From NCBI GenBank assembly GCA_000004695.1, contig CM000154.2:4000001-4064000 (forward strand): DNA of 64,000 bases, read 5' to 3'. Below, one piece after another: positions 1 to 26,700 of this stretch. Source of the DNA: Dictyostelium discoideum (Eukaryota). The notes beneath the pieces were generated by a model. That model was given only the letters and a program-made list of their open reading frames with translations. It was not told where the DNA came from and searched no databases. How positions within the stretch are numbered: position 1 is the stretch's first letter; every line of letters starts with the position of its first letter. The translations under genes were made by a program, and so were the position numbers.

Positions 1-1066
1 TTTTTTTTTTTTTTTTTCTTTTTTTTTTTTCTTTCTTTTTTTTTTTTTTTATTTTTTTTAATTTTTTTTTTTTCTTTACCTTTTTTTTTTTTTCGATCAT
101 ATAGAAATAAAAAATAAAAATTAAAAGAATTATAACCATATCAAACCCATACCAAAATTTATGTTTACAAAATCAAATTTTAAATTCACACCATAATAAC
201 TCAACAATAATAATAAATATTGATAATGGTGATTGCAATTTAGATTGTTCATGATTTTTTACAATAAATAACTTTAATAATATTTCATTCTTACCTAAAT
301 AATCAAATAATAATAATAATAATAAAATTATAGAAATTATTTAAGAATAGATAACTCTAATGTTAAATTCGATGGATCAATAATAATAATAAACACATTT
401 GAAATACTAATAATTAGTAATAGTGAAATATCATTCAATAATGGAGCAGTATTTTATCTTGAAGGCTTTCTTGAAAGAAAAGAAACATGTTCAAAGATTA
501 AATTTTCAACTCAACCATCATAGTGTATTTGATCTAATGGTATAAATTCAGATTCTAGGATACTTGAATTACGAAATCTTTCAATAGAAAATATATCTTT
601 AATTATAAATTATCATACAGATGATAGTAGCAGTAGTAAAGAAAAAAAAAAGTAAAGTAAAAAAAGTACGGTAGAGAATTCAAAGATTTTAAATTTCATT
701 TCAGATAGTGATATGATTAATAACTCATATCATTCTACTATTATATTTAAGTATCAACCAAGTTAATTGATCAATACCAAACAACCATCTATCAATTTCA
801 ATTTGAAAATAATCAATTTTCAAGTTATTTAATTTTTTCAAAAAAAAAAATTCCACCGTTAATCTCTTCAATAAAAAGATACTAAAAAAATCAAGGTGGT
901 GATAGTTCAACTCTTTTTATGTTTAATGCTTCAAATATCATTGTAAATTATTGTCAATCCTCTTTTAATAATTAGCTTCAGTAAATGTTTTGAAACTGGT
1001 CAAACTATCAATATATTTTTCTGTTAATTATCAAATATTTGATAATTGTACAATTCCATTTAAAAA

Positions 1067-1118
1067 ATGGTTAATTTATTATATAAAAAAAAAAAAAATA
1101 GAAAACTTCTTGTTTATT
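1067..1118. repeat. Copy A of a roughly 50-bp duplicated segment (ATGGTTAATTTATTATATA(A)nTAGAAAACTTCTNGTT)
   Basis: Near-identical copy at 3637..3686 (about 90% identity apart from A-run length), seen by direct comparison. Confidence 0.6.
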
Positions 1119-1177
1119 TATTTGTTTATTTATTTACTTATTTATTTATTATTTATTCATTTGTTTGTGAAAAAAAG

Positions 1178-1209
<32 letters not shown>

Positions 1210-1561
1210 AACTTTTTGTTTGTTTGTGAAAACTAATATTTTTTATTTTTCTCAATTCTTTTTTTTTAAAAAAAAAAAGGAGGAAAATTTTTTTGGATAT
1301 TTTAATTCTGTATGAATATAACAAGTAAAAACAACTGTACAAAATAAGAAATCTAATAAATATATATTTGAATAATTAAATAATTATATAAATAAAAGGT
1401 TGAACAATAATTGTGATTCTAAGCATTATTTAATCTTGATAAAATTTTTGTATGGGCTATCACTATTTTTTCTTTTAAAGAATTTCTTCACTTTTATAAA
1501 ACTTTTTTTAATTCTATTTAGAAACAAAAAAAAAAAAAAAAAAAATTAGTCTGAAATTCAA

Positions 1562-1769
1562 TTAAAATAATATAATAAATAAATTTAAAAATTTTAATAA
1601 ATACCCTTTAGCAACCATTTGAAAGAAAAAATGTATCATTTTAATAATGGGATAGCTTTGAATTTGTCTATTTTTTTTATAATCTTCATCAGATTCATTA
1701 CTACCATTTGTATTTAAATTATTGTCACTATTATTAATACCAATATTATTACTATTATTATTTATATTA

Positions 1770-1816
<47 letters not shown>

Positions 1817-2521
1817 TGAAGATGATGATAATGATAGAGGTGAAGAGGATAAAGAAGAACTTGTGGAAGGTGTAGTTTTACCAACAAGTGCAGTTGAATC
1901 ATATGATCTTAAAACTCTAATTTCTTTTTCTCTCTCTTCAACTTTTTGTTCCAAATGTGAAATTTTATCTTTCATTTTTTGGCAATAACATTCAACCTCT
2001 AAATGATATGTAATATCTTGTTCAGTCTTTCCACTATAAAAACAACCAAACTCTTTATTTGGACAATATCTATTACAAAAGAATAAAGTTGTACTTGATT
2101 CCCATAATGCATTATTATCAAAATCTTCATTATTTATATTATTATTATTATTATTATTTATATTATTGTTATTAATATTATTATTAATATTTGGTGATGG
2201 TGGTTGTTGTGATGGTGAAATATTTTCAAATGATGGTGATTTTGAAGAATTGAAAGATGTATTTGATTTTGGTGATGAAAATGAATCACCTGATGATTTC
2301 ATTTCATAGAAATCTTGATATGATAGTGTTGGTGATGATTTATCATTACTATGATCACTAATAACACCATGACTATTAAATTTGCATTGTCTTTCATGTG
2401 CCAATTTTGATCCATAGCTAATTAAACAATTACATCCATTTACTTTGGTTGTAATTTCACCATTATTTGGGTTTTCTTCAACACCATATTGACAATAACA
2501 TAATAATTGGTCAAACTCATC

Positions 2522-2555
<34 letters not shown>

Positions 2556-2869
2556 AATTTAAAAAAAAAAAAAAAATAAATTACAAAATTAATATTTTAT
2601 ATTTTATAATTATTTTATTTCAAATTTTATTAAAATTGATAATAATAAAAATAATAATAATAATTTTTACCTTTTAATTGTTCATTAATAGAAATATTTG
2701 TTAAAGGAAAATTATCAATTGGACAATGTGTTAATGTTTCAACACAAAATGAACAAAAACAATGTAAACAAGTACTATTTTCAAATGGTACATCCATTAA
2801 TCCGCCATGATATGAACATAAAAATTTATCTTCTGGGTTGATTACAAATAATGTTTTAGAAACTTCCAT
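1562..2869 (-). CDS. TRAF-like protein with a TRAF-type RING (C3HC3D ending ..THCPID), two TRAF-type zinc fingers, a coiled coil and poly-Asn tracts. Two exons, approx 2869..2671 and 2520..1562, separated by a 150-bp GTAAAA..AG intron (phase 1).
   Basis: ORF-track pieces 2630..2869 and 1562..2404 join in frame across the intron (..NEQLK|D EFDQLLCYCQYG..). Motifs include CLHCFCSFCVETLTHCPID and NRYCPNKEFGCFYSGKTEQDITYHLEVEC. No MATH domain was seen. The last 30 codons look non-coding, so the 3' end is uncertain. Confidence 0.6.
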
Positions 2870-3253
2870 TTTAATTTTTAAATTATTATTATTATTATTT
2901 TTTTTTTAAAACAAATAATTTTTTTTTATAATAATTTTGTTAATTATATTTTTATTTTTATTATTATTATTGTATTAATTTATAAAGTGTTTGTTTTTAA
3001 TACCATAAAAAAATAAAAATTAAATAATTAAAAAATTAAAAAATTAAAAAAAAAATTTATTAATAAATTTTTTTTTTTTTTTTTTTACTATTTTTGAAGT
3101 TGTTAATATAAATTAGGGAATAATTTTTAATAATTTATTTTTTTTATTAAATTTTTTTTAATTTTTTCTTTTTCTTTTTTTTCTTTTTTTTGAAATTACA
3201 AATTCTTTGATTGATCATATATTTTTAGCATCAAGTACACATTTATTGATATG

Positions 3254-3314
3254 TAAGTGTGTGTTAGTGTGTTTTTTTGAAATTGATTCATACAAAATTT
3301 ATCTGGGTGGGGTG
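3254..3314. promoter_or_regulatory. GT/G-rich block (GTGTGTGTTAGTGTG...CTGGGTGGGGTG), a CA-rich element on the minus strand, about 400 bp upstream of the TRAF-like gene start. Resembles Dictyostelium G-box/CA-element promoter motifs.
   Basis: A rare G/C-containing island inside an otherwise almost pure A/T intergenic region. The functional assignment is inference only. Confidence 0.2.
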
Positions 3315-3636
3315 TTTTTTTTATTTTTGGACAAAAGTAATAATAATAATAAAAATAAATGGGGTTGTTTTCATAAATCATTTCAGTTAAAATTAATTTT
3401 TTATAATTTTTTTTTATACCCATTGAATTATTTTTTTATTTTTTAATTACTTTTTTAAATATTATCTATTTAAATAATTTTTTTTTTTTTTTAAATTAAT
3501 TTTTTTTTTCATTAATTAATAAAACTTATTTTGAATTGAATGAATTTAATTTTTTATTTTCATTTCTTTTTTTATTTTTTTTGTTTCTTTTTATTTGATA
3601 TTACCTGTTTTATGAATTGTTAAAAAAGTAATAACC

Positions 3637-3686
3637 ATGGTTAATTTATTATTATATAAAAAAAATAGAAAACTTCTGGTTATTTT
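3637..3686. repeat. Copy B of the roughly 50-bp duplicated segment, at the apparent 5' boundary of the retroelement fragment.
   Basis: Matches 1067..1118. Confidence 0.6.
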
Positions 3687-4214
3687 CTACATCAAAAGGA
3701 AATATTCGATTATTGCCATATCTCGATTATTCAATATTTTTTTTTTTTTTTTTGAATTGGATAACGCAATTATTATTTGCTTCTCCTTGAGATGCTAGAT
3801 CTCATTTTATTTTATTTTTTTTTTTTTTTTTACAGGGTCTCTAAAAGAGGGGTTAGTTTACTTTTTTTTTTTTTTTTTTTTTTTTGTTTCGAATTTTGAA
3901 TTGTATTATTACTTTTGATTAAAACATCTTTTTTGTCCAAACTTTTTTCTAAATCTTTTTTTATTTTATCGTCTGGTTCGTGATTGATGTTTATGACGTA
4001 TTTGAATTGTTTTTTTTTTAATTGAGTTTTATCCACAATTTCGCTTATTTTTTGTAGGCATTTGTGTTGCTTAATATTTGTGGTGTTGTTTGTGATTTTC
4101 ATTTTATTTTCTTTCTATTTTTTATATTTAGACAAAAAAGATGTTTTAATCAAAAGTAATAATACATTCAAAATTCTCACAGACAGTATTAGTACAGTAA
4201 TCTATTTTGTAAAT

Positions 4215-5300
4215 ATGTTCGATGCAGAATTAAAAGGACAATTTATAACCACTCTAAGACCAAAAAATATGTATACGGATTTCGATTGGTATAAATCACT
4301 CACAGAAATAGAATGGGTAATAGAAAATGAAGGATGTAAACTAATTAAATCTGAAATTAAAGGCGAAACTCTAATTATCAAAACAGTGAAAAGAGTCGTA
4401 GAAGAATATGACACTATCATTGAACTAGACAATCTAACATTAATTGGTCACTCCAACAAAGGATGGAGAGATCAAACCTCATTACCAGAAAATCAAGAAG
4501 AAAACAAAAATAAAAAACAATCAGATGAACAACAACCAAAATCTACATCAGAACAAATACCAAAACAAGGAAAAAGAACAATCATTATCCCACCAATCAC
4601 CTCCTCATCTAATGATAAAACATTTATGGCCCTAGATGATACAGCTCAAAAGGTAATAGATGCATCACTAGAAAACGTAGATGAACTAACAAGAATAGAG
4701 AATGAGATCAATACCCAATCGATAAAAAATCAAGAAATTAAAACAAAATCAGAAAAACCTATTGAACCACCATCTCCATACAATACACCAATAAAACAAC
4801 ACGGCGAAACAAAGAGACTAACAACGGAAGAAAAACTTAGAGAGGTAAATGATATCTTCGACTTCACCAGCCCAAACACTGATGCAATAAGAAAAATAGA
4901 ATTCCCACTTTCAATCCCTTCAAATCAATGGTTCTTCTCCTCTCCAATAAAACATATCATGAGTTTCAGCCCAACCTATGGTACACCATCGAAAATTATC
5001 GATTCACCAAGTAAATTGTTAAACACACCAAAAAACAAACAACAAGACAAAACAAACAGGACCAACAAAACACCAGTCAAACCAAAATTGGGTGAATATG
5101 GACAAAAAAGCATAAAAACAAAAATGGATGAAGATATAGACAACTTCAACAAGGAAATTCTAAAACAAATCAGTAAATCAAAAAACCCCACAAACACACA
5201 AGACCAACAACACAACGAACAAAGTAAAGATCAGTTAGAAGACAAAATAAACCAGAAACTTCAAAAGGTAGATAAAAATCTACCCCAAATAAAACTATAA
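4215..5300 (+). CDS. Retroelement ORF1 protein of 361 aa, starting MFDAELKGQFITTLRPKN...
   Basis: Long ORF (track 4062..5300) with non-Dictyostelium-like composition. The first plausible ATG is at 4215. It is followed in the overlapping frame by an endonuclease-like ORF2 start. Confidence 0.55.
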   Translation: MFDAELKGQFITTLRPKNMYTDFDWYKSLTEIEWVIENEGCKLIKSEIKGETLIIKTVKRVVEEYDTIIELDNLTLIGHSNKGWRDQTSLPENQEENKNKKQSDEQQPKSTSEQIPKQGKRTIIIPPITSSSNDKTFMALDDTAQKVIDASLENVDELTRIENEINTQSIKNQEIKTKSEKPIEPPSPYNTPIKQHGETKRLTTEEKLREVNDIFDFTSPNTDAIRKIEFPLSIPSNQWFFSSPIKHIMSFSPTYGTPSKIIDSPSKLLNTPKNKQQDKTNRTNKTPVKPKLGEYGQKSIKTKMDEDIDNFNKEILKQISKSKNPTNTQDQQHNEQSKDQLEDKINQKLQKVDKNLPQIKL

Positions 5301-5302
5301 AG

Positions 5303-5455
5303 AAAAACACAATAAGAATAGGTGTTTGGAACGTCCAAGGATCCAACACCATCCAATCTGCCAGCATAATAAACACCGTATTAGACAACAACAAGCTGGA
5401 CGCAGCACTTCTAACTGAAACAAATAAAACGATTATTCAATATTGTTATTTCTAA
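5303..5455 (+). pseudogene. Truncated 5' remnant of retroelement ORF2 (AP-endonuclease start), about 50 codons then a stop.
   Basis: Frame overlaps the ORF1 stop. Motif VWNVQG...DAALLTET. The reading frame dies at 5453-5455. Confidence 0.35.
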
Positions 5456-5477
5456 TTATTAAAAACTTTCACATCAT

Positions 5478-5549
5478 TCCTTGTTGGTCTAGTGGTGAGG
5501 ATTTTCGCCTGTCACGCGAAAGGCCCGGGTTCAATTCCCGGACAGGGAG
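5478..5549 (+). tRNA. tRNA-Asp (anticodon GUC), 72 nt, no intron.
   Basis: TCCTTGTTGGTCTAGTGGTGAGGATTTTCGCCTGTCACGCGAAAGGCCCGGGTTCAATTCCCGGACAGGGAG. The 7-bp acceptor stem pairs (one G-U). A box is TCTAGTGGTGAGG, B box is GGTTCAATTCC, anticodon loop is cCTGTCAc, discriminator is G. Confidence 0.92.
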
Positions 5550-5555
5550 TTTTTT
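5550..5555 (+). terminator. RNA polymerase III terminator (T6) immediately after the tRNA.
   Basis: TTTTTT directly follows the discriminator base. Confidence 0.6.
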
Positions 5556-5579
5556 AAGATTCCAAAAAATAAAATCGCA

Positions 5580-5589
5580 GGTTCGACTC
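5580..5589 (+). promoter_or_regulatory. External B box (ex-B box) GGTTCGACTC, 31 bp downstream of the tRNA 3' end.
   Basis: Matches the B-box consensus GGTTCGANTC outside the tRNA body. Dictyostelium tRNA genes are known to carry such an extra B box. Confidence 0.5.
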
Positions 5590-5797
5590 TTGTTTAAGAC
5601 TATATTGATAATAATAAATAAAGGAAAAAAAAACCGTACCGCGATCAAGAGGATACAAGATACACGTGAAAAGTAATTCATCCTTTTCTATCTTTAATCT
5701 CGGTCAATTTTAACCAATCTTTCAAAAAAAATCACCAATCCACCACGATCTACAGATCTAACTTACCAAATCGCCGATTCAAAGGAATCCCATCGAG

Positions 5798-6568
5798 ATG
5801 AATTCCTACGCAGACGCGGCTAAAATGGCCAACCCCTCCACCCATATGGACGAGGCATCGGAGAACTTCATTAAGGAATTCTCCACAAAAACAGCAGAGA
5901 TAAAGGAGACCTACCCCAAACTATCAATAGGCCTCAAAGACATCTCCAAATACTGCGAGACCATATTGAACATGACTGCGCTCTCAACCTATGAGAAGAA
6001 CAACGGATTCTACCCAATTACTCGAATTCCCCAAAATGGATCTCAAGGGGTTAGAAGAAATGNNNNNNNNNNNNNNNNNNNNNNNNNNNNNNNNNNNNNN
6101 NNNNNNNNNNNNNNNNNNNNNNNNNNNNNNNNNNNNNNNNNNNNNNNNNNNNNNNNNNNNNNTTTACAAATGCATAAATCTGCAAATAATTCAATATACA
6201 TAATAAGTTGGATGGATCAAATCATCAACAAATCAATCTCTTCTCCATACCTTATAAAAATCAAAAAAGAATGGGAAAATTATGCAACTCAAATTGGACA
6301 TCTAAAAGATAAAGTTCAAATCCTACAACCAATATTAATAAAAAATCAAACCTCTCAAACATTAAACACAAATAATATTCCACTACCACCAACACTCAAA
6401 GAAATCTACTCGACAATACTCAACAATCACCAATGTAAATCAAAAGACTATATTGGCAAGAAATATTCAGATCTACTTCTTACTTCGCACCAACAATCAA
6501 TACAACTATTACGGAAATACACATACCACCAACTATTTGTCAAAATTCAAAAATTAAAAGATCCATAA
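5798..6568 (+). CDS. Retroelement ORF1-like protein, 256 aa, interrupted by the assembly gap.
   Basis: ORF track. The composition is unlike host genes. Confidence 0.4.
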   Translation: MNSYADAAKMANPSTHMDEASENFIKEFSTKTAEIKETYPKLSIGLKDISKYCETILNMTALSTYEKNNGFYPITRIPQNGSQGVRRNXXXXXXXXXXXXXXXXXXXXXXXXXXXXXXXXXXLQMHKSANNSIYIISWMDQIINKSISSPYLIKIKKEWENYATQIGHLKDKVQILQPILIKNQTSQTLNTNNIPLPPTLKEIYSTILNNHQCKSKDYIGKKYSDLLLTSHQQSIQLLRKYTYHQLFVKIQKLKDP

Positions 6569-6580
6569 GGCCGTGATACA

Positions 6581-6919
6581 ATGCAAAGATTCCATGCTAG
6601 ATGTTTTCCGATTAATCATCTACACAACAAAGTTTGCCCCATTTGCAACAATGAAATGAATAATGATCCCTATGGTCATTTGTTTTTCAATTGTCAGCAC
6701 ACAATCAACTTCATAAACCACGACAAATTAAAATATTTTATATATAAAAATTGCAATGGAAACAAAAACTGGTCACTAACAAAAAACCAAACAATAAAAT
6801 TATTCACACTCATTTATAAACCACAAACAAACAACAAAGCATTTAAACCAGATCCAACTATCAATATTAATTTTCATTTTGCAGAAAACGCACAATATAA
6901 AAAATACAGGTTCAACTAG
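6581..6919 (+). CDS. Retroelement Cys/His-containing ORF (CPICNNEMNNDPYGHLFFNC), possibly the frame-shifted C-terminal part of ORF1.
   Basis: ORF track. Zinc-knuckle-like spacing. Confidence 0.3.
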   Translation: MQRFHARCFPINHLHNKVCPICNNEMNNDPYGHLFFNCQHTINFINHDKLKYFIYKNCNGNKNWSLTKNQTIKLFTLIYKPQTNNKAFKPDPTININFHFAENAQYKKYRFN

Positions 6920-7407
6920 AATTATATAAACACAAATCTTGATCTAGTCAGAACACATGCATATTAGAACATAATCTCATTTGTTATTCACCAAATATGG
7001 ATATGGTTATGCAAATCATTATTTGGCATCAATATAACTCAATCAATTGACAATTGGAACAACTAAATAAACAACACAACACTAGATTATGATATATTAA
7101 AATCAAAATGACACAAGCTAATAAGATTGGAATATTCAAGAACATTATCAAACTTTAACCAATACTCAATTAAAAACAACCTCACAAAAACTCAAAAAGA
7201 AACCCAATGGTCTGAAACCATCAAAAAATTTAAAAAAGAATGGAGCATAAACACAAATGAACCAATTCCAACAATTACACCACCAATTAATTATTAATTA
7301 CCTAATCTAAAATAACATACCATTTTAAATTCACAAAAACTAAAAAACCTAAAATAAATAAATAAAAATAACATACTAATTGTATACTACAATAGTTTAT
7401 TTATATC

Positions 7408-7439
<32 letters not shown>

Positions 7440-8028: not shown

Positions 8029-8100
<72 letters not shown>
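8029..8100. repeat. Poly(dT) tract of about 72 nt.
   Basis: Uninterrupted T run, directly 3' of the Argonaute gene. Confidence 0.95.
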
Positions 8101-8104
<4 letters not shown>

Positions 8105-8115
8105 TTAAAATAAAT

Positions 8116-11078
8116 TTAAAGGAAGAATAATTTATCAGATAATTGAGGCGCAGCATCAGCGAAAACTGTTCTACCAATTAAAAATGCCATTTTGTGTGCA
8201 AATTGACAAGTTGCTGGAACACGAACTATAAATTTTAAATTTTAAAGTATTAATATATATATATCAAAATAAAGATTATTTATATTATTTAAATTTAATA
8301 TTAAAATATTAATAATTACCAGATTTTTCAAAGTTGAAATAAAGATGACACATTTGGAAAGTAAATAATTGAAATAAATCAGCAGGCATTTTTTGTTCAT
8401 CCAATAAAACGTGATAATGAGTTGGATTGACAGAACCATTGTTAGTTACTTGAGAGACTAAAAAGAAATCATACCAATTTGGATGGGTAATTTTTGAGTC
8501 AACCAAAGTACCAGCTGGAGGATTACCAATTGGATCAGCAGTAAATAAACGTGCATTTGTATTCTTTTTGACAATGACATACATTAACTTTGGTTTTATA
8601 CCCCAAGAAGATGGTGTTTCAGCAAAACCTTTTTTCATTGCAGCAATTTCAGATCTATTGACAAGATCTAACATACCATCACCAACACCATCACGATAAA
8701 CTATAACCAATTCTGGTAAACAATTATTGAAACTAAAATATTTTGACATTGCTTCTTTAGTTGCTTCTTCAAGAGAATCAATGATTTCTTTACCAGGACG
8801 CTTTTGAACAAAAGATCTTGAGAAATACTTTTGAAATTTATCATCGATAGTTGCAACGAATCCAACTACTGAATGACCTCTCATATCAGAGTTATGACCA
8901 ACATCGATACCAATGATCATTGTTTTCTTTGGAATGACACCATTGAATATTTGTTGATTGAGACCCCATGGTGCATAACCTAACTTTGCAATTACTTGTT
9001 GTTTTAATTTATTGGTTACTGATCTACCTTTATAAAAAGTCCTTGGGAAAATACATTGAGTTAAAACTTTAAATTGAACCAATGATTTTCTCTTTATCTC
9101 TTTATAGATTTCTGGTTGATTTTGTGGAATTAACATTAAAAAGAATTGAATACCATGTGTTTTAATTGCATTCTCCATGATATTAGAGTATTGAATTGGT
9201 CTTTTATCGCGTGGGTCTGTATAACAAATTGTTGTTGGTTGTGACATTCCAGTTTCATTTATGAAATTATAAAGATTGGTTTGGCAATCTCTTGTTCTCT
9301 CATATTCATCACGATCAACAACAAATGCCCATTTAATATTATTCAATTGACGTTTATTATCATTTGGTAAATTCTTTGGTGCACTTAAAACATAACCATC
9401 AACTTTTAAAGCTGGTTGATATGTAATTCCCCATGGTTCTAATGATTTTGAAACTTTTGGATTATTATTAATATCTGAAATAAAATTACTCAATGTTTGA
9501 TATCTTTGACTTGGATCAAAATTTGAATGTTTTGCTAATTCAGCCATAAGTTTAAAATTTTTACGCATCTAAATAATAGTATTTATATTAATATGTTTAA
9601 ATTAATTAATAAGAATAAAAAATAAAAAGAACAAACTTACATGATCACTTAATCCAGTTAAAAATGTTAATTCTGGAATTAAAAAGATAGTTTGTTTAAT
9701 ACCTCTGAATTTAACTTCAGATTTTAATAATGGTTGACGATAATCTGTAATTTTATGATTTGGATAATTTCTTTGATAATATTGTAAAAATGTTGTTGTA
9801 CCATCCATTTTATCATTAACTCCACTTGACCAAGAAATATTAGAGATACGATAGGTTTTATTATTATAACGAGTTAATACAATTGAATTTATAATTTCAT
9901 CAAAACATCTATCTTTGTCATATCTAAGGTATTTAATTCTATCTAATACAGTTTCAGATCTAACAACTTTTGAACTTGTATCTGCTAATAACATTGTACC
10001 AGATTCTGTTGAAACTACAGATGTACTAAAACCTTTCCAAACTTCAAGTAAATAATCTTCAAATTTAATTTTATTTATTGGTGAATAGTAATTTCTACCA
10101 ATAAGTGAAAATCCCATTTTTCTCATATTCTATATTTATAATAAAAAAAAAAAAAAATAAAAAATTATTAATTATTAAATTTAAAAGAAATAAAAAATAA
10201 AAAAACAAAAAAAATAAACTTACATTTTTTGTAATAATATTAAAAAATTGAGAATTAACAGATGATTTATCCCTATGGTTAACTTCTTTTACTTTTCTAA
10301 TAAATATTTGAACACCATCAATTGATTGTGAATTAATATTGATATTAATCGGAGAATATAAAATTGAATCACCATCATAGAAATAAAATTCTTTTGATAT
10401 GTTATTTAATGAAAGTAATTCTCTAATTAATTTACGTCTCTTGTCAAAAGTAACTTGTGGTGGATTAAAATCAATACGAAATTCTAGTGATTTCCTATCT
10501 GAAATAACAATTGGAAAGAAATTTGAAATTAAAGAAATTTGTTTACCTTGAACAGTTCTTGATTTTGCTGTAACAATTGCAACATTTTCAATGTCAGAAT
10601 CTTTAACCATATCTCTTCTTGAAATTCTTGGAACTAATAGATTTGTATTTGTTGTATTTGTTGTTGTAGTTGTTGTAGTTGTTGTTGTTGTTGTTGTTTC
10701 AGGTGTTTGAGGTTGTGTGATTGGTTTTACTTCTTGAAATTGTTCTTCAAGTGGGATACTGTTATTTTGTTTTCCCCAAGCATTTTGAGTTTGTCTTGGT
10801 TGGAAATATTGTTGTGGTTGTTGTGGTTGTTGTAGTTGTTGTTTTTGTTGTTGTGGTTGTTGTGGTTGTTGTGGTTGTTGTGGTTGTTGTTTTTGTTGTT
10901 GTTTTTGTTGTTGTTTTTTTTGTTGTGGTTGTTGTGGTTGTTGTTTTTGTTGTTGTTGCGGTGGTTGTTGTTGATAATTATTATTATTGGTTCTTTGTTT
11001 CAATGGTGATTGACTTCTATCAATTTCTTGATGAGATTTTGGTTCACCATTGAATCCTTTTTGTTTTTTTGGGATCAT
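8116..11078 (-). CDS. Argonaute/Piwi-family protein of about 900 aa: Q/T-rich N-terminus, PAZ, MID and PIWI domains. Four exons: 11078..10224, 10129..9641, 9568..8320, 8225..8116.
   Basis: PIWI motifs GIDVGH, VIVYRDGVGDG and PTHYHVLLDE..LFQLFTFQMCHLY align to human AGO2 (PSHYHVLWDD..LQILTYQLCHTY). The last exon encodes RVPATCQFAHKMAFLIGRT.., which corresponds to SIPAPAYYAHLVAFRAR. Introns of 94, 72 and 94 nt have GTAAGT/GTAATT...AG borders and preserve the frame. Confidence 0.8.
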
Positions 11079-11705: not shown

Positions 11706-12887
11706 TTATGAATTAATTTTTTGAATACTACTTGAATCGATATCAATATTAGAATTATTAATATTATCATTTTTTGGATATTTACCTTCAACACCCATTT
11801 TATACATTTCATAATTTTTTAATTTAATTTGATCATAATGATATGTAATACATTCATGTGCTTGAGTATCAAGCCAACCACCTTTATCTTTAATCAATAA
11901 TCTTGTAATAACTCTTGAACAAATTGCACCAACTATTGTAATCAAAACTGTAATATATGAACCAATGTCTGAAAGAATTCTAATTGCAAGTTCAAAATTT
12001 GATTCAGTTTTTTCTGTTATCACTGCAACATCATTAAAATAAATTGAATAAGATAAAGTAAATGCTCTTGCAACACTTTGTTTAATTTGCCTTGAGTTAC
12101 TAGTTGCAACAGAATTAATAAACACTTCTTTTTCATCACCAAATGTTTTTATTATTTTTTTTGATGTTCCCAATGTAAATTGTTGTGATGAATCTGAATA
12201 ATATTTATCATCTCCAAACCATACGGAAATTGGGAAAGATGGAACTCCAAGATCAAAATAACCAGCAACTACATTTATCTAAAAAATTTATTTTATAAAA
12301 TTTTCATTATTATTATTTTATTTATTATTATTTATTTTTTATTATTTTTAAAAATAAATATTTTACCTCTAAAAACTCTTTTTCTCCCAAAGCCATTTCA
12401 TCAGTTGAATAATAACCAACGAAATCTGGTGATATTAAAACAAAGGTGGAATTAATTGCATATGCACAATCAAGATCCCCAACTAGTAATTTATTATTAT
12501 TAACACAATTTACCAATTGCTCCATAACATAATTACCCTTTTCATCGTAATAATATCTATTAAAAATTACAGAATATAAAAAAAATAATGAAATTTCATA
12601 GGTATTAAAAATAACATAAAAATGAGGAGGCTATAAATTTATTAGTATTTTTTTTTTTTTTTTTTTTTAAAATAATAACAAAAAAATGATTTAAAACCCA
12701 CATTTATTTTTTCTTGATAATCTGCAGTTATTGAAACAACTCTATTTGTTATATTCCTTTCAATGATAAAGTAACAAATTACAGTAAAACTTAAAACCAA
12801 GAGAATATGTTCAAAAATTTTTATTCTATATTTTTTTAAGCTTACTTTATCATCATTTGGAATACCAAAAATTCTATTGAACACCAT
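11706..12887 (-). CDS. Two-TM membrane protein of about 315 aa, a paralogue of the divergent neighbour at 13215..15500. Three exons: approx 12887..12703, approx 12551..12367, 12278..11706.
   Basis: N-terminal TM (HILLVLSFTVICYFII), an ecto region, a second TM and the motif LLIKDKGGWLDTQAHECITYHYDQ shared with the neighbour. The intron after ..EKEFLE|INVV is at the same position as the neighbour's ..EKEYFN|INIG. The exon1/exon2 junction phases do not match with canonical GT..AG sites, which suggests a sequence error or pseudogenisation. Confidence 0.5.
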
Positions 12888-17972: not shown

Positions 17973-18009
<37 letters not shown>

Positions 18010-19199
18010 GTTTTTTTTTTTTTTTTTACTATTATTTTTGATTAATATTTACAATTTATTTTTTTATTTAATAAAAGTAATGATTGAAAAAATTATTTTT
18101 TATTATTTTATATAGTTTCTAATGTTAATTTTCAATTTTTTGTTGACTGTTTTTGGAAACAGATTGTGGAGGTATAACTAAAATAGGCAATTTTTGGGAT
18201 AGTTAAAGATTATTACTATAAATCAATAAGATTTGAATTACTCTTATTATTTGATTTGAATTTGGTAAATTTATATTATCATTTTATTATGTTTTAAATT
18301 CAATTGCTAATATAACCCATTAGTATTCTTTAAATGCCCATCATTTATTTCAAATTGACCACCTTGTAATAATTTAAAATGTTCATATGATTCTTTGAAT
18401 TGTGTAATATAATGTTAAACCATCAGCACTGGTATATGAAAATAGATTCACACAATTTTTATTTAATTTTGGTCCTGTATGTTTTGATTTTAATTTCGAT
18501 TTTTGTGAAGTATTTTTTTTAACTTTTTTATAAACTCGAGTTGAGTAATTGGTTTAAATCAAACAATTGGACTCTATTTCTTTTTGATAATTTGATTGAT
18601 CTTCTTGTTACAATTTTATCCATGTTTTTCCTTTTTTTTTTTTTTTTTTTTTAATTAATTAATATTTATATCTTTAAATTATTTGTTTTTAATAGTGAAA
18701 AAAAAAAAAAAAAACAACATTTTTGCTTTTATAACAACAGCGCAAATAAAAATAAAAATAAAAATAAAAATAAAAAAAAAATATTTTTTGTCTTACTGTT
18801 ACAATCAAATTTCAATCGAGATTAATTTTTTAATATAAAATTAGTTTTTGTGGAAAAGAAATATTAATAAGAAAATAATTAAATAAATAATTATATAAAT
18901 AAATGATTAAATAAATAAATAAAAAAAGTTGAATATTTATATTTATTTATGTTTTTTTAATTTTGTTTATTCATTTATTTTTTTTTATTTATTTACCATA
19001 AAAAAGATAAAAAAAAATTTAAACAATAACACATAAAAATATAATGTTTTTTAATTACTCTAAAAAAAAAAAAAAAAAATCAAAAAAAATGAAATTAGAT
19101 ATTTTTTAGTGTTTTTTTTTTTTTTTTAAAGATTTTTTTTTTTGGTATCCGAGTCTTTTTTTTTAATTTTTTTTTTTTTTTTTTTAATTTTATTACACA

Positions 19200-20229
19200 A
19201 TGAAATCATTAGCATTATTGTTATCGTTATTAATCAATTTTTCTATTGGTAGTTATATAAATTTCATCCCATATGATAATTCAGATTGCACTGGAGCAAT
19301 CAACGGGGGAGGTTGGTCTATTTTGGAGTATGCTTGTTTTTCAATCGATGTCAGATACAATTACCAATTTACAACCCATACTTTAAATGGTGAAGGATTT
19401 GTTCAATGGGTAAGATATAAAATACTAATAATAAAAAAAAATAAAAAAAAAAAATAATTAATAAAAAAATAAAACTAATCTTGAAAAAAAAAAAAAAACA
19501 ATAAATAAAAAGACTCAATTCCCAAGAGTTGTAGGAAAAACACAATGTTTTTATCAAGACTTACCAATAAGTAATGCATCAATTGGATCATGTTATAAGA
19601 ATAACCCTCTATCAACATTTGATATCTTTCGTTCATTACCATCAAATCAATATTATTTAATTTCAGTTACAAGTGAACCATTTTACCCAACTAATCAAGC
19701 AGGTATGATTGTTTTACAATATATGGGTAATGGTGAATGTTCAAATGATAATGTAGAAATAATGCAATATTTTACAAATAACACTCAAAGTGAAGATGGT
19801 ATAACTGGTATTCAAATGAAATGGTATTGTAATGATGAAAATGAACCATATGAAACTCAATGTTTTAATGGAAAGAACTGTTTTGATATGCCACAACAAT
19901 ACAAATGTTCACCAACTCATCCATTCTTCAATACATCCGATGAAATTTCAGGTGGTACTGGTGCTGGTGATTATTCAGGTACTGGTTCAGGAAGTAGTAG
20001 TGGTAATAGTGGTACTAGCGATGGAGGTAGCAGTGGTTCTGGTTCTGGTTCTGGAAGTGGTGCATTTATCTCTATCATTGATCAAAATGATAAAAATAAT
20101 AACAAAAATAATAACAAAAACAAAAACAATAATAATAATAATAATAATTACAACCAATATGAAAAATCAACTGGAGATGGTGGTATAACTAAACCTCATG
20201 ATAATTATATATCCTCATTTTGTACTTGA
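19200..20229 (+). CDS. Secreted cysteine-rich protein of about 309 aa with G/S-rich and poly-N C-terminal tracts. Two exons: 19200..19409 and 19513..20229.
   Basis: Signal peptide MKSLALLLSLLINFSIG. The GTAAGA..AAAAG intron joins ..GFVQW|TQFPRVVGKTQCFYQD.. in frame. About 14 Cys residues. Confidence 0.55.
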
Positions 20230-20335: not shown

Positions 20336-20733
20336 TTATTTTTTCATATCACCAGTAGCAGCTTCTAAAAGGATAATTGTATCACCATCTTGATCATCAT
20401 TTCTAATTTGTTTTTTGTTTACAATTGGAACTTGGAAAGTATGGAAATAATCTAAACCCATATAGGTATCTGAATATAATTTAACATTATAGTTTGTAGA
20501 GGATTGGAATGGAGCTTTTGGAATTTTAAAGTTTGCAGTAACTGAATTTGAAATCATTTGTGGTACTCTCTTAAATCCAATCATTTGTTCTTTTTCATCT
20601 GTTAAAACCATAATCCAACCTTCATCTTTATCTTTACTATAAAGTGGTGCAAATGCATGACCATTTGAGAATTTCTTATTCTCTCTTGTAACTTTAATTT
20701 TAATATTAAATTCTTGACCTGAATAAACTATTG

Positions 20734-20764
<31 letters not shown>

Positions 20765-23700
20765 CTTTTTGTTATTATTATTATTATTTTCATTATTATT
20801 ATCATCATTATTATTACTATTATTATTTGTATTAATAAAATATTCAATTTTAACTTTTGGTAAATGATCAATAACATTTAAAGTTTCTTTAATTTGAGAA
20901 TCTGAAAGACCAATATTAGTTAAAGATAAATGAATTTTATCTCTTGGAATTTTTAACATATCAGAAAGATTTGAGATTTGTTCACCATTTGATAAGATTA
21001 AATTTGAAGAGAGGAAATCAGCAAAATCTTTGTTGATATGAGGTAAAGTCATTAATGAAGAATCATAATCCCAACGACCTTGAACCAACATTTGTAATAA
21101 TCTAATTACTTGGATGGCAGTAGCGAAATAACCATATTCAAAGGAGACATCAATCATAGCTTGAAGAATACGAATACCTTGATCCAAAGCAGACTTTGTA
21201 TCGGTGGTAAAATCTGTGATTGGTAATGGACATCTTTGGAAATGAGCTTGTAATAGCAAATGAACTTTGGTATGAGAATCTTCATAGTTTCCAATTTTAA
21301 TTGGAAGATTTTCATTCAACTCTTGATTTAGAATCTCTTCATTGTGTCTTACTGGGAATTCACTATATTCGGCAGCATCTGATAATACTCTTAGGAGGGT
21401 TTTAATATCACTATCACGTTTAATATTATCAGAGAAGTTTTGAACGGTTTTATAATTCAAATAGTAGAAAGAAGCGATTTTACCCATTGACATTGGTATG
21501 ATTTCATCGTATTCATTGATTTCAATACAACTTGATTGTTCGAGATCGGCCAATGTTGAATCCAAGAGATCAGAGAGATATTGATTTACAGCTTCGACAC
21601 TATTATCCTCGAGACCATAATAAGATGGTGATACAACCAAACGACGGAAAAAGAAAGTATTGACCAAATAATTGATTGCACCTTGTTTTGATTGAATTGT
21701 ACCTGAAACGATCTCGGCATTCAAATGGTCATGTAAAAAGTCTTTGAGATGGCTTTCAACTGGGAATGGATCGTAAAGGAATTTCTTATAGAATTGTTTC
21801 TTTGGTTCATGAACCATTACCATTGCTTTACCTTCTTTATCGAATTGTGGACGACCTGCACGACCAATCATTTGAAGTACATCAGTCAATGGGAAATCGA
21901 CATAACGTTTGGTTTTACCATCGAAATATTCGGTACCTTTAATGATAACTAAATGGGCGGGTAAATTGACACCCCAAGCCAAAGTACTTGTAGAGATTAG
22001 AATTTGAATTTTATTCTCACCAAAGAGTGATTCAACGATTGTACGATCACCATCATTTAAACCAGCATGATGCATACCTATACCAAATGAAAGTGTATGT
22101 CTAAGATGTTGATCTTTAACACGTGCCAATGTTGGTTCAATATCAAAACCCTTTTGAATCCATTGTAATGGATCATTATCAACCACCAAATAAGAGATTA
22201 AATCCAATGCGGTTAAACGAGTTTGACGACGACTGCTTACGAAAATTAAAACTGGTTTCTTTGGTGAATAGGTTGCGATAGCGGCAAATGAAGGTTTATT
22301 CATAGTTTGCATACGTGGACAATAGTTTTTACCTTGGAAACCTTGAATATGAACTTCAATTGGTACTGGACGACAAGATGGTCTAAAATTGAAAAGACCA
22401 ACTCTATCAATACCCATCCACTCTGAAAGATCAATTGCATTTGCCATGGCAGTTGATAAACCTACTACACGAATATTAACACCGGTTTGTTTAGAAATTA
22501 ATTTCATACGACTTACAATTACCTCTAAAATTGGACCACGTAACTCACCAATTAAATGAATTTCATCAATGATTAACAATGATACAGAGGTTACATAGGA
22601 ACGATTCTTCCAATTTCTACTAATACCATCCCATTTCTCTGGTGTTGTTGTAACGATATCAGCATTTTGTAATGCAATCATATTTGGAGTGTAATCACCA
22701 GTTAACTCTACCAATTTCTTACCAAGTTTCTCTTGAAATTTAACCTTCCAATCATTCATTCTTTCACGTACCAATGCCTTCAATGGTGCAATATAAACCA
22801 CTTTCATATGAGGTTCATCTCTAAATACTTTAAACATTGCTAATTCTGCACAAATGGTTTTACCTGAACCAGTTGGTGAACCTAATAAAACATTATTATT
22901 TGTATAATAAAGAGTATGAAAAACTTGAGTTTGAATTGGATTGAAATGAGAGAATTTGAATAATGATTCAAAATCTTTATTTTTCAATGCTTCCTTTGGT
23001 AATGGTTGTAAATCTAATAACTCTGTATTTACGACACGATCTTGTTGTGGTAAAACTAAATGTCTGAATGAAATCTCTCTAATACCTTCGGAACCTAACC
23101 AACGATCGGAAATATAATGTAAAAAGAATTGTGATGGCATTGGATTTGGTAATGGTATGATACAAGTCAAAGTGATTGGTTCAGTTTGATTATAGATCTT
23201 TTTAGTTAACATGAAATATTCACTATGGAAAATGTATTGACTTTCATTATCTTGTACCCAAATCCAAAATGGTTGACTATCACCATGCATCTTGTCATTC
23301 CAACTAAACATTGGTATCAATGTCATATTGATACGAATGATATTTGCAGTGATTGGTTGAACTTGAATTTCAAAATCCAATTGTGGGAATTGTTGTGCAA
23401 TCTTTCTAGTGGTTTTTGCAATCAATTGATTACCCAAAACAAATGACAACTCCCCAATCTCCATATCACAAATTCTTTCAGGTGTCCAATCTCTTTCTTC
23501 AATCTTTCTAATGGTATCAAGTGATAATACTTTTGCTTGACGTAATGGTGATTCGAAATGCCAAAGTTGATGATCAACCATCTTGCAAAGATCTAAAATG
23601 GTCTTACTAACTGTGCACCAACCTTTCTTTAAAGAGATTTCAAAAAGACCTCTTAAAATTCTAGAACTATTTTGAACGGTATAATTTGAATCACTAACTA

Positions 23701-26700
23701 AACTAAAGCCATCAATATTTGCACGTGAAAAGAAAGCTTGAAGTAAACATTTCACTTTGGAATGACTATCCAAAACTGTCAATTCATAATAACATTGGTT
23801 CTCGGCTAATTTATCCAATTCAGTTGATTCCTCTTCACGTAAGGTAATATTTTCAAACTCGGATGAATTTGATAAAATATTTAAAACTTGATCTTGACCC
23901 AATTGATCATTCAACATTTCATTGAAAGTTTCAATCGATGGATGTTTAATATAATAATGTGAGGCGATTCTACCCAATTCTGTCATACCTAAATTTTCAG
24001 ATTGTTCATCGAAACGAGTCATTTTACATTGTTCCAATTTCTTTGCTGCTCTAATGATAATTTCACGTTTAAACTCTTCAAGTTGTGGATCTTTTGAACG
24101 TTGAGAACTTGGTATACCATACACCAATGGATTTTGAAGCATTCTAATGAATAAATAGGTATAACTTAACCAATTGACAGCTTCATTAACATTTGATACT
24201 GTTCCTAAAACAATCTCTGCATTTAAATGATCCTCAAGATTTGTAATGAATTTACTTTCAATTGGCATAGAACTTGACATTAATGAAAGATAATGATCCA
24301 ATTTATCCTTTGAAGTTAAAAGGAAACCTTCACCACTTGTATCGAATTGTGGACGACCAGCACGACCAAAGATTTGCATAACATCTGAAATTCCAAGATC
24401 CATAAAACCACCATTCTTTGCATTGTAAACTTGAGTACCTTTAATGATTACAGTATGAGCAGGTAAATTTACACCCCAAGCCAAGGTTGCTGTACAAACT
24501 AAAACCTTAATGGTACCATTGGCAAAGTATTTCTCAACCACATTTCTATCAGATCTTAGGAGACCAGCGTGATGTACGGAAATACCATGTTGAAATAATG
24601 ATCTAATCTCTTTACTCTTTACTTTTTCAAATTCTTTCTTTGCACCAAATGATGGTTCCTCATTAGAGAAACGGAAATGCTTTTCTTTTGCCATATCACT
24701 TAAAATCTCTGCACTCTTTACAGTATCCTTTCTAGAATGAACAAAGATCATAACTTGATGACCTTCCTTTAATGATTTCTCCAATCTTTCATAACATAAT
24801 TGATTCATATTATTTTTCATAACCATTATACCTTGATTATCTTTAACACCAATGAAATTTTGAGTTAAAGGTACTGGACGATAAGATGAATCGAAAAAGT
24901 GAGTACCTGAAGCTGGTGCTCTAATAAATCTTGCAACATCTTTATAGTTTGGTAATGTTGCTGACAAACCAACGATACGAATCATCTCTTGAGTGGTTTC
25001 AACTTGACGAAGTGTTCTTGCTACAATACACTCCAATACTGGACCTCTCTCTTCATGAAGTAAATGAATTTCATCGATAATGATTAATCTAACCAATTTT
25101 GTCAATGCAACATCACTACTTTTTCTTGTGATAACATCCCATTTCTCTGGTGTTGTAACGATGATTTGAGTCTCTTTAAGTTCCTTTTGAGTCAATTGCA
25201 TATCACCAGTTAACTCTTTTGATACGATACCTAAATATTTCAATGAATTTGAAAATTTCTCAACCATTTCACTTGCTAAAGCTTTCAATGGTGCAATATA
25301 AATGATCTTGAAATTATCTTTATCCAAATAACCATATGGATTGATATTGCTTTCAATCTCGTGTAAAATTGTCAATAAAGCAATATTGGTTTTACCAGCA
25401 CCAGTTGGAGCTGAAATTAAAATATTTTCATTACTCTTGTATGCAGATTCAAATACACGACTTTGAATACGATTTAATTTCTTTATACTACCAAATGCTG
25501 CTCTACTAATCTCTGCAATTGATTCTCCAATCTCTATTAATTTTTCATTATCTGCAAATGGTTTAGCCAATGAATATGGTACCATAACTTCAGTATGTGT
25601 GGTTTTCTCTGTTCTAACTGTACCCTTTGGCAATGCAATCTTACCACCGTATGGTAAATCTATACAAACATCACCACCTGTAAACTCTTTTTGATTATAA
25701 ATAGTTGGTTGTTCAAATGATTGTTGACTATGATCAATAAATTTAATTTGTTCTTCTTGATATTGTTGTTGCTGTTGTTGTTGTTGATCATTTTTATATC
25801 TCTTTTTATCATCTTTTTTTAATTGCTTATCAAAATCTTTTTCATCTTTTGTTTGAATTGAAAAATGATTTAAAGGACCAGAATGATTCGATGCTCTATA
25901 ACCAGATACAACAGAACCCAAAATACTATCACGATACTTTATGATATCTGCAATTAATTCTAAATGATCGAAACCTAATAATCCAATCATATCCTCTTCA
26001 ATTGTTTCTTTTTTATTTTTTAAAAATGACATTATTGTATTATAAATCTCTTCTGATGGTATACCTAAACCAATTGAAATTACACTACATTCCTCTCTTA
26101 ACCATTCAATTGTATAAGTGCTATCAACTACATTATTTGATTCTAAATTATTTGAACCACCAGCTGCTGCTAATTTCTTTAATTTTTTTGATTTTTTAAT
26201 TTGACCAGGTTGATGAATTAAAACCATATCACTTAGAGGTGTATTTATAAGTTTTTCTTTTTCCTTTTCTTTTTGTTCATCAAGATTATTATTAATTTTT
26301 GTATTGATGAAATGATTGATTTCATCGAAAATTGACATTTCATCATTATCTTCAAATTGTAATTGATATTTCGATGGTAATTGCCATTCCATTGATTCGA
26401 AAGAATCAATGGTTTGTACTGATTCATTGGATGCTTTTGAATCTGATTCAAATGGATTCTTAATTTGTAATAAAAGGCCAACTTGTTCACTTAATTTATT
26501 ATACATTGCTACTTTGAAAAATGAATGAAAAATTTGACGTAATGATTCACATTTTGATGCTTTATCTTTATGTGGATTTGCAACAATCATAAATGTTTCA
26601 TAAACTGCTGATGCAATCTCATCTGATGGTATTTCATCATCACCAATCATCTCTAAAACAATCTCTTTAAATTTATTAAAAATTTGTCTATTCTCTTTTT

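Follow-up and report, generated by a model that had tools for sequence, protein, structure and literature searches.

A twin-priming-like TRE5-A insertion with an inverted arm upstream of a Dictyostelium discoideum tRNA-Asp gene

A tRNA-Asp gene of Dictyostelium discoideum is preceded by TRE5-A sequence and followed by TRE3 sequence, and the open reading frames of the upstream sequence are directed towards the tRNA gene. TRE5-A is described as strictly orientation-specific, and the question raised by this locus is how an element came to read in that direction. The window studied is a stretch of 64,000 nucleotides (positions 4,000,001 to 4,064,000 of contig CM000154.2, assembly GCA_000004695.1), and its features are collected in Table 1. 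A first-pass annotation had reported a tRNA-Asp gene and a TRE5/TRE3 pair on the two sides of this Pol III gene. Both proposals were borne out, the first by the ARAGORN call and the second by an ORF1 99% identical to DDB_G0293142, which assigns the upstream sequence to TRE5-A. The annotation had also argued that a segment in which ORF1 and ORF2 read towards the tRNA gene is incompatible with ordinary target-primed reverse transcription, and with this we agree. The putative motif that follows the tRNA gene resembles the external B boxes described elsewhere (PMC5911963).

Table 1 Features of the tRNA-Asp locus, in window coordinates
Feature	Position	Strand	Basis
Target-site duplication, left copy, 15 bp, CGATTATTCAATATT	3724-3738		Exact repeat of 5430-5444; inner side abuts T15
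Oligo(A) tail of TRE5-A	3739-3753	-	T15 on plus strand; aligns with A-run ending the related element in L001
C-module, 137 nt	3754-3890	-	Reverse complement of related element 3' end, L001 12670-12830
3' B-module, 5' side truncated ~28 nt upstream of its own ATG	3891-4130	-	Collinearity with relatives
Inversion junction: TTT common to both segments plus one ambiguous A	4127-4130		Two BLAST alignments overlap at 4127-4129
Last ~50 nt of 5' B-module	4127-4176	+	Inverted repeat and alignment
TRE5-A ORF1 codons 55-444 plus stop, frame intact	4128-5300	+	386/390 residues identical to DDB_G0293142
First ~43 ORF2 codons (start of APE endonuclease), -1 frame	5301-5429	+	Translation
Target-site duplication, right copy, 15 bp	5430-5444		-47 to -33 relative to tRNA; directly follows last TRE5-A base
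tRNA-Asp(GTC) gene	5477-5550	+	ARAGORN
T6 terminator of tRNA-Asp	5551-5556	+	Adjoins tRNA-Asp gene
External B-box-like motif GGTTCGACTCT, putative	5580-5590	+	Read from sequence
Duplication of first TRE3 insertion, 5' copy, TAAAGGAA	5619-5626		Same octamer after A31 in L005, 16670-16677
TRE3 copy 1, 5' end: 5' UTR and ORF1 start	5627-6062	+	Unbroken into complete 5.25-kb element in L005
Assembly gap, 100 N	6063-6162		N run; stands for ~12.86 kb
TRE3 copy 2, 3' end: last ~378 ORF2 codons, 3' UTR, A28	6163-7435	+	95% identical to DDB_G0274673

The upstream element is a composite that spans 3739-5429 and consists of two segments on opposite strands, every base being assigned to either An-C-B' or B''-ORF1-ORF2(1-43). 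The oligo(A) tail, the C-module and the 3' B-module form the tRNA-distal end and lie on the minus strand, where 4130-3739 reads in the order of a TRE5-A 3' UTR (B-module, then C-module, then oligo(A)). The element had been described as lacking any C-module or oligo(A), whereas 3739-3890 contains both when read on the minus strand, beside the 3' B-module. The last 54 nt of the C-module fold at -11.3 kcal/mol (z = -3.0). The reported C-module lengths are 137 bp in TRE5-A.1 and 87 bp in TRE5-A.2 (PMC3159450). The 3' B-module contains a duplicate of ORF1 codons 1-67 at 4102-3902 of the minus strand, the ORF of which is identical to residues 1-67 of the DDB_G0293142 ORF1 at 67 of the 68 aligned residues. 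It is collinear both with the B-module that follows the RT ORF in L001 and with the B-module in L005.

The plus-strand segment (4127-5429) is collinear with the B-ORF1-ORF2 region of a related element. Its 5' B-module end (within 4127-4176) forms a 47-nt inverted repeat with 3895-3941, the two being 91% complementary. Membership in TRE5-A was judged by the presence of an ORF1 protein of the TRE5-A type, a 444-aa protein without relatives outside the family, and the segment encodes codons 55-444 of such a protein at 99% identity to D. discoideum DDB_G0293142. The 361-aa ORF1 product that begins at the ATG at 4215 is annotated in a second assembly, GCA_054883475.1. Homology to the related element ends at 5429 (within ~2 nt), flush with the right copy of the duplication, and the ORF2 of relatives runs on past this breakpoint as ...TETNIKTNKIYSIN... 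An exhaustive search of representatives with the 51-aa ORF2 remnant returned divergent relatives only. The earlier statement that ORF1 and about 50 codons of ORF2 were kept stands for ORF1 codons 55-444, but the ORF2 codons number ~43. The remnant had been read to within 22 bp of the tRNA gene, but the bases that follow 5429 (5430-5444) are duplicated target. A leader had also been assigned to the left end, but 3637-3723 is unique flank to the left of the duplication and composite, and 3724-4126 is the duplication plus reverse-complemented 3' end.

The composite has no A-module, its 5' B-module is without the first two thirds, and ~3.4 kb of ORF2 is missing. No RT is present in 3739-5429, and by base accounting there is no room for an A-module. 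The composite therefore lacks the 5' A-module promoter and the complete ORF2 (APE-RT-ZF) of an autonomous TRE5-A.1, and it is neither a TRE5-A.1 (AB-ORF1/ORF2-BC) nor a TRE5-A.2 (AB-ORF1-BC) as described. It is a dead copy, without promoter module, without RT and without demonstrated function.

Both arms of the composite are enclosed by a single exact 15-bp duplication, a length within the 10-16 bp reported for TRE5-A target sites (PMC9012585). There are 47 nt between the composite and the start of the tRNA-Asp gene, which falls in the TRE5-A integration window of 47+/-3 bp upstream of tRNA genes (PMC5391098) and agrees with the first-pass proposal of a junction near the canonical position of -48. 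A chance origin of the repeated 15-mer was considered and rejected. Although matches of at least 15 nt are common to 1.5% of random AT-rich segment pairs, these are presumably mostly homopolymer runs, and the chance of a 15-mer at both fixed abutting positions is ~1e-7 as estimated from base composition. The copy thus resembles TRE5-A (DRE) in its ORF1 (99% identical), its B- and C-modules and oligo(A) tail, its 137-nt C-module with a terminal stem-loop, its 15-bp duplication, and its insertion 47 nt before a tRNA gene, from which the 3' end points away. It differs from TRE5-A in that the 5' 1.3 kb of the composite is inverted. The 3' arm (oligo(A), C, B) has the canonical orientation, and the inverted tRNA-proximal arm puts ORF2 codon ~43 towards the tRNA.

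These data bear on the explanation originally offered, which was that a TRE5-like element reading towards the tRNA gene later lost its 3' end by deletion or by recombination with the target. That explanation accounts for an ORF1 and ORF2 start that read towards the tRNA and end short of it. We consider it highly improbable, since a C-module and oligo(A) exist on the other strand and both halves are enclosed by the duplication. The 3' end is not truncated; it is complete, lying distal to the tRNA gene on the minus strand and inside one 15-bp duplication. An intact 3' end on the other strand together with one bracketing duplication argues for a 5' inversion during integration.

An inverted structure might also be produced in assembly by mis-joining reads of different TRE5-A copies, as TRE5-A is multi-copy and an unresolved repeat gap lies just 600 bp away. 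However, over window positions 1-6062 the gap-free, chromosome-scale assembly GCA_054883475.1 shows 0 mismatches and 3 homopolymer-length differences, and it is identical through both outer junctions and the inversion point. Moreover, a mis-join through B-modules would be direct rather than inverted, and the duplication of unique DNA matches at both outer junctions. An assembly artefact is thus extremely unlikely, and the collapse of the upstream element suspected earlier is excluded by the independent assembly. The anatomy, the duplication, the position and the strands of the segments are direct readings of the DNA, and the structure is the same in both assemblies.

Exact-product look-ups of the junction-spanning ORFs (412 aa and 70 aa) and of the AX4 TRE5-A ORF1 proteins P0001-P0004 gave no match. 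The 530-aa neighbour gene matched only Logan contigs of 2-3 kb, none of which extended to the tRNA-Asp locus. Note that GCA_054883475.1 may simply represent the same laboratory lineage sequenced anew.

By the published definition (PMC2837659), a twin-priming product is an element split into two mutually inverted fragments, internally deleted and flanked by duplications. The composite has one duplication, two opposed fragments and poly(A) on the non-inverted arm only, and its inverted arm is derived from sequence 5' of the non-inverted arm, with the ~3.4 kb of ORF2 missing between them. Two inverted fragments within one 15-bp duplication plus an internal deletion constitute the twin-priming signature. 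Twin priming is also favoured by the TTT microhomology at the junction and, more tentatively, by the 10-mer TTATTCAATA, which is the sole match of at least 9 nt between the duplicated target and the 4.5-kb related element and lies 14 nt 3' of the ORF2 breakpoint (P about 0.006-0.01). The ORF2 5' codons and the 137-nt C-module point to a TRE5-A.1 template. A TRE5-A.2 template was rejected because its C-module would measure 87 nt, not 137 nt, and because of the ORF2 5' codons. We conclude that the composite is probably the product of a single TRE5-A.1 retrotransposition at the canonical site upstream of tRNA-Asp that was completed by twin priming.

We infer the following order of events and priming mechanism. 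The TRE5-A endonuclease would nick the plus strand between -33 and -32, and the exposed ...CAATATT-3' end would prime on the oligo(A) tail of the TRE5-A RNA. The first cDNA would extend through the tail and the C-module and ~240 nt into the 3' B-module, in canonical orientation, with the 3' end of the element distal to the tRNA. With the first cDNA still unfinished, the minus strand would be nicked 15 bp further upstream, and a 15-nt 3' overhang (5'-AATATTGAATAATCG-3') would anneal within the ORF2 region of the TRE5-A RNA. From this overhang a second cDNA would be extended across ORF1 as far as codon 55, inside the 5' B-module, and the two cDNA ends would be joined at the TTT microhomology. 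Copying would have skipped ~3.4 kb of ORF2 as well as the A-module and the greater part of the 5' B-module.

Several observations count against twin priming. The internal deletion is large (~3.4 kb), the junction microhomology is just 3 nt and the second cDNA could have been primed on another RNA molecule. The 10-nt homology is offset from the ORF2 breakpoint instead of coinciding with it, and it was read from an 83%-identical relative and not from the AX4 master sequence. TRE5-A is also reported to require the C-module hairpin for retrotransposition (PMC3159450), which counts against twin priming here. In the searchable literature, queries that combined twin priming or inversion with TRE5 or Dictyostelium found no such copies described. 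To our knowledge, twin priming is without experimental demonstration for TRE5-A.

The composite is like the mammalian twin-primed (5'-inverted) L1 copies in having duplications around two inverted fragments, a single poly(A) at the non-inverted end, an internal deletion with microhomology at the inversion junction and, more tentatively, a target overhang that resembles the element near the putative internal priming site. It is unlike them in that the host is an amoebozoan and the element is tRNA-gene-targeted and has modular UTRs. It also combines a very large internal deletion with a short non-inverted arm (392 nt), and the overhang/RNA homology lies ~14 nt off the breakpoint in the one relative compared.

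The 3.4 kb that separates the two copied regions would also fit a template switch or dual priming, the latter having been proposed for L1 (PMC2837659). The template of the inverted segment would then have been another TRE5-A RNA molecule or an antisense transcript of the C-module promoter. Antisense RNA is indeed made from the TRE5-A C-module (PMC3159450). The final DNA would be identical to the twin-priming product, but both parts are of the same TRE5-A type and ~99% identical to consensus proteins, and nothing in the sequence requires two templates. We consider a second template unlikely. To a similar degree we doubt a rearrangement after integration. In that case a canonical TRE5-A.1, head-to-head with the tRNA gene, would later have undergone inversion of its ORF2(5')-ORF1-B portion, and double-strand-break repair or ectopic recombination would have removed the A-module, part of B and what was left of ORF2. 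In its favour, both the 3' end and the duplication have the canonical form, and the junction microhomology is typical of end-joining repair as well. However, four breakpoints and two deletions would be required, one breakpoint would have to lie precisely where the element meets the right duplication copy, and the full 15-nt target copy, including CGA, is kept beside ORF2 as predicted by overhang primer extension. Moreover, an intact element carries its B-modules as direct repeats; recombination between these would produce a deletion and not an inversion, and this route was rejected.

The downstream sequence had been described as one internally deleted TRE3-like copy without RT. This appearance is wholly explained by the assembly gap, 6063-6162 being 100 N. 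The "element" is two TRE3 copies of different families that derive from separate insertions and are joined across the gap. Copy 1 begins 76-83 nt downstream of the tRNA-Asp gene, its first base falling somewhere from 5627 to 5634, and has the same direction of transcription as that gene, like other TRE3 elements downstream of tRNA genes. Only its first ~430 nt are in the window, where the ORF1 start has a 1-nt frameshift and matches protein P0020. In L005 of GCA_054883475.1 copy 1 is complete, with a length of 5.25 kb, an ORF1, an A31 tail, the duplication TAAAGGAA and a 1234-aa ORF2 containing RVT_1 and a CX2C...H zinc-finger motif. TRE3 elements were recognized by a position 40-150 bp beyond the 3' end of a co-oriented tRNA gene, an ORF2 with APE-RT-ZF, an oligo(A) and a duplication, and copy 1 as read in L005 has all of these.

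The A28 run noted in the first pass is present at 7408-7435 and ends copy 2, the ORF2 remnant of which has two in-frame stops and is 42% identical to the ORF2 of copy 1. This A28-tailed fragment is of another TRE3 family and goes with a tRNA-Ala gene that lies within the gap. Protein P0040 links the N-terminus found after tRNA-Ala in L005 to the C-terminus of copy 2. The gap size is given by the coordinate offset, L005 and L006 on CM142511.1 differing by 12,762 bp. In GCA_054883475.1 the gap is filled by the rest of the complete TRE3, a gene, a TRE5-A fragment, the tRNA-Ala gene and most of the second TRE3. The 100 N thus conceal ~13 kb with a tRNA-Ala gene and a protein-coding gene. Exact-product look-ups of the 112-aa TRE3 ORF and the 2104-aa helicase ORF gave no match.

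The locus requires no 3' truncation, no recombination with the target and no internally deleted TRE3. It is a real but modest curiosity, a twin-priming-like TRE5-A insertion. As a natural footprint of TRE5-A integration it has a readable nick stagger (plus strand -33/-32, minus strand -48/-47) and, by analogy with mammalian L1, suggests that the second-strand overhang may prime reverse transcription inside TRE5-A RNA. Annotation pipelines or PCR assays based on orientation would score such copies as wrong-orientation or "3'-truncated".

The C-module is a weak promoter that fires antisense to TRE5-A (PMC3159450). In the composite it points into the flipped segment and so would give sense transcription of the shortened ORF1 (codon 55 on; 361 aa from the ATG at 4215) towards the tRNA. 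Full-length ORF1 protein binds TFIIIB in vitro, and thus the shortened product could influence Pol III complexes or the targeting of TRE5-A, although we think it very doubtful that the inversion made such a functional transcription unit. If twin priming is the correct explanation, this locus would give the first description of such an event for a tRNA-targeted amoebozoan retrotransposon. The second strand would then be cleaved 15 bp upstream before first-strand synthesis is complete, and the TRE5-A RT would be able to start at an internal site without the C-module hairpin.

An ORF at 4062-5300 (plus strand) points towards the tRNA-Asp gene and is ORF1 of a TRE5-A element; in protein comparison its product showed 99% identity to D. 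discoideum AX4 DDB_G0293142, a 444-aa protein with many copies. The alignment begins only at ORF1 codon 55 (window 4128), and an APE-type ORF2 follows the ORF1 stop for about 43 codons in the -1 frame, the same shift as that reported for TRE5-A (PMC5911963). The ORF1 and ORF2 stub facing the tRNA, as described in the first-pass annotation, were thus confirmed. A related element in another D. discoideum assembly (L001, about 83% nucleotide identity to the window copy) is collinear with window 4558-5429 (plus strand) across ORF1 and the start of ORF2.

Features of the tRNA-Asp locus, the assembly gap and neighboring genes (window coordinates except for the gap content)
Feature	Coordinates	Strand	Remarks
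tRNA-Asp(GTC)	5477-5550	+	ARAGORN; sole tRNA gene called in window
External B-box-like motif GGTTCGACTCT	5580-5590		begins 29 nt past tRNA-Asp end
100 N	6063-6162		assembly gap
Gap content	L005 11849-21086		rest of TRE3 copy 1; 3.4 kb unique with gene (18005-19203); TRE5-A 3' fragment; tRNA-Ala(AGC); most of second TRE3
Argonaute gene	Piwi 8309-9568; PAZ/ArgoL1 9602-10126; Q-rich N-terminus to 11078	-	
Brr2/SNRNP200-like helicase	20336-26650	-	ordinary host gene
TLDc protein	27524-28450	-	ordinary host gene
Formate-tetrahydrofolate ligase	31914-33830	+	apparently single exon; ordinary host gene
Trehalose-phosphate synthase/phosphatase	43974-46544	+	ordinary host gene

The exact 15-mer CGATTATTCAATATT occurs twice, at 3724-3738 and 5430-5444. 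The insertion thus occupies 3739-5429: the left copy adjoins a T15 run and the right copy adjoins 5429, the final base with TRE5-A homology; position 3637, previously taken as the element start, is unique flank. Exact matches of at least 15 nt arose in 1.5% of trials with random AT-rich segment pairs drawn from the window, presumably mostly as homopolymer runs, and the chance that one non-repetitive 15-mer stands at both fixed positions was estimated from base composition at about 1e-7. TRE5-A target duplications are 10-16 bp (PMC9012585) and the primary integration position is 47+/-3 bp (PMC5391098). The element ends 47 nt from tRNA-Asp, in accord with the earlier suggestion of a junction near the canonical position of about -48.

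The minus strand within 3830-4102 encodes ORF1 residues 1-67 (67 of 68 aligned residues identical), followed on that strand by 137 nt with two internal A-runs and then A15. The layout of TRE5-A.1 is AB-ORF1/ORF2-BC, in which the ORF1 start lies in the B-module and this module recurs in the 3' UTR, and its C-module is 137 bp, versus 87 bp in TRE5-A.2 (PMC3159450). In the L001 element, the B-C-oligo(A) end after the RT ORF corresponds in reverse complement to window 3727-4129. The final 54 nt of the C-module gave a multi-stem fold (-11.3 kcal/mol, z = -3.0), and the essential C-module hairpin, as published, falls within the same terminal stretch (PMC3159450). The C-module and oligo(A) are thus present. 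They sit on the other strand, at the end far from the tRNA, which is their canonical place, since the 5' end of TRE5-A always comes to lie towards the tRNA (PMC3159450, PMC5391098, PMC5911963). The rival reading of the first-pass annotation, a 3'-truncated element, drew on the short ORF2 stub, but its premise that C-module and oligo(A) are lacking did not hold.

The two arms join at 4127-4130, where a TTT is common to both sources and A4130 is ambiguous. The minus-strand B ends about 28 nt upstream of the ATG, versus a start about 83 nt upstream, with CCTGGGAAC, in the intact B-modules of L001 and of a TRE5-A fragment in L005, a locus on record CM142511.1 of the gap-free assembly GCA_054883475.1. 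The plus-strand arm begins about 50 nt ahead of the B-module end, and the 47-nt inverted repeat 3895-3941 / 4127-4173 is the two B-module ends in opposite orientation.

The 361-aa ORF1 product of the window is annotated in L005, and window 1-6062 matched L005 5793-11848 with no mismatches and three homopolymer-length gaps, through both duplication copies, the inversion junction, tRNA-Asp and the beginning of the element after it. An assembly error in the upstream element, including the collapse raised earlier, is therefore very unlikely. This agreement speaks to the assembly and not to insertion age or population frequency. Inside the C-module, the T24 run at window 3862-3885 is T21 in GCA_054883475.1; beyond it, the 6 kb contain only two homopolymer-length changes (window 18 and 36).

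Twin priming is defined by its product, an internally deleted element whose two parts lie inverted to each other between duplications (PMC2837659), and the window TRE5-A copy is probably such a product. A plus-strand nick after ...CAATATT (-33/-32) would expose an end that primes on the oligo(A), giving a first cDNA of 392 nt that comprises the tail, the C-module and most of the B-module. Following a minus-strand nick 15 bp upstream, the minus-strand 3' overhang would prime inside ORF2, and the second cDNA would extend back over 1.3 kb as far as codon 55 in B. When the 15-mer was compared with the 4.5-kb related element, the sole match of at least 9 nt was TTATTCAATA, 14 nt past the breakpoint (empirical P about 0.006 versus random AT-rich 15-mers; about 0.01 by position), which may count in favor of overhang annealing, although the exact priming register is hazy since the reference is an 83%-identical relative rather than the AX4 master and the region contains internal repeats (ACAAATATAAAA / ACAAACAAAA). 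An unlikely rival is rearrangement of a TRE5-A copy after integration; the complete 15-mer, including its first CGA, is kept beside ORF2 sequence, which is more in keeping with primer extension than with a crossover inside the homology. Another unlikely rival is a variant of the same event using two RNAs. Under twin priming, the presence of ORF2 5' codons and a full-length C-module indicates that the RNA template would be TRE5-A.1, and so about 3.4 kb would have been skipped.

Downstream of tRNA-Asp, a single TRE3 with an internal deletion and an A28 tail had been proposed; this had to be abandoned, as an assembly gap intervenes and its two sides differ in TRE3 family. TRE3 copy 1 starts 76-83 nt past tRNA-Asp in the same orientation, as expected of TRE3 (PMC5911963), and about 40 nt downstream of the B-box-like motif. 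It is complete in L005 (about 5.25 kb in total), with a 1234-aa ORF2 containing an RT domain; it ends in A31 and carries the duplication TAAAGGAA. Its ORF1, canonically 417 aa (P0020, a TRE3 ORF1 protein), is split into two frames in both assemblies by a 1-nt deletion at window ~6018-6024 (L005 ~11804-11810), where P0020 reads ...GFYPITLEFPKMD....

The post-gap fragment (6163-7435, TRE3 copy 2) has 95% identity to DDB_G0274673, of another protein family, and only 42% to the ORF2 of copy 1; a nucleotide search of L005 with it returned only 100 nt of low-complexity sequence and 172 nt of ORF2 at 69% identity. In-frame stops at 6566-6568 and 6917-6919, which replace a K and a W of DDB_G0274673 respectively, mark it as a decaying copy. 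The formate-tetrahydrofolate ligase gene of the window lies on the same record, CM142511.1 (L006), and the offset between window and record coordinates shifts by 12,762 bp across the gap, which therefore stands for about 12.86 kb. The L005 element after tRNA-Ala has its first 52 codons identical to the N-terminus of P0040, a 1389-aa protein whose C-terminus belongs to the family of the post-gap fragment. By implication this second element measures about 5.1-5.2 kb, the length of a full TRE3. Given the P0040 link, the gap size and the family mismatch, the supposed deleted TRE3 is two full-length elements, at two tRNA genes, joined by the gap.

Upstream of tRNA-Ala, L005 20090-20626 holds a TRE5-A fragment (ORF2 tail, B and C) in canonical orientation, with the last ~45 nt of the C-module and the oligo(A) apparently missing; this appears to be a truly 3'-truncated copy. 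Elsewhere in the window, an uninterrupted poly(T) of about 72 nt (8030-8101), unusually long even for the D. discoideum genome, lies just past the 3' end of the Argonaute gene.

The window copy belongs to TRE5-A by its ORF1, UTR modules, position and duplication, but features of autonomous copies are absent and only half of it conforms to the orientation rule. It behaves like a twin-primed L1 insertion. The searchable literature, with older subscription literature on TRE structure outside its scope, gave no description of TRE copies with an inverted 5' part or of twin priming in Dictyostelium, and a prior description is possible. The locus is a further example of a known event type, and a twin-primed copy in the TRE5-A family would be of mild relevance to mechanism and annotation.
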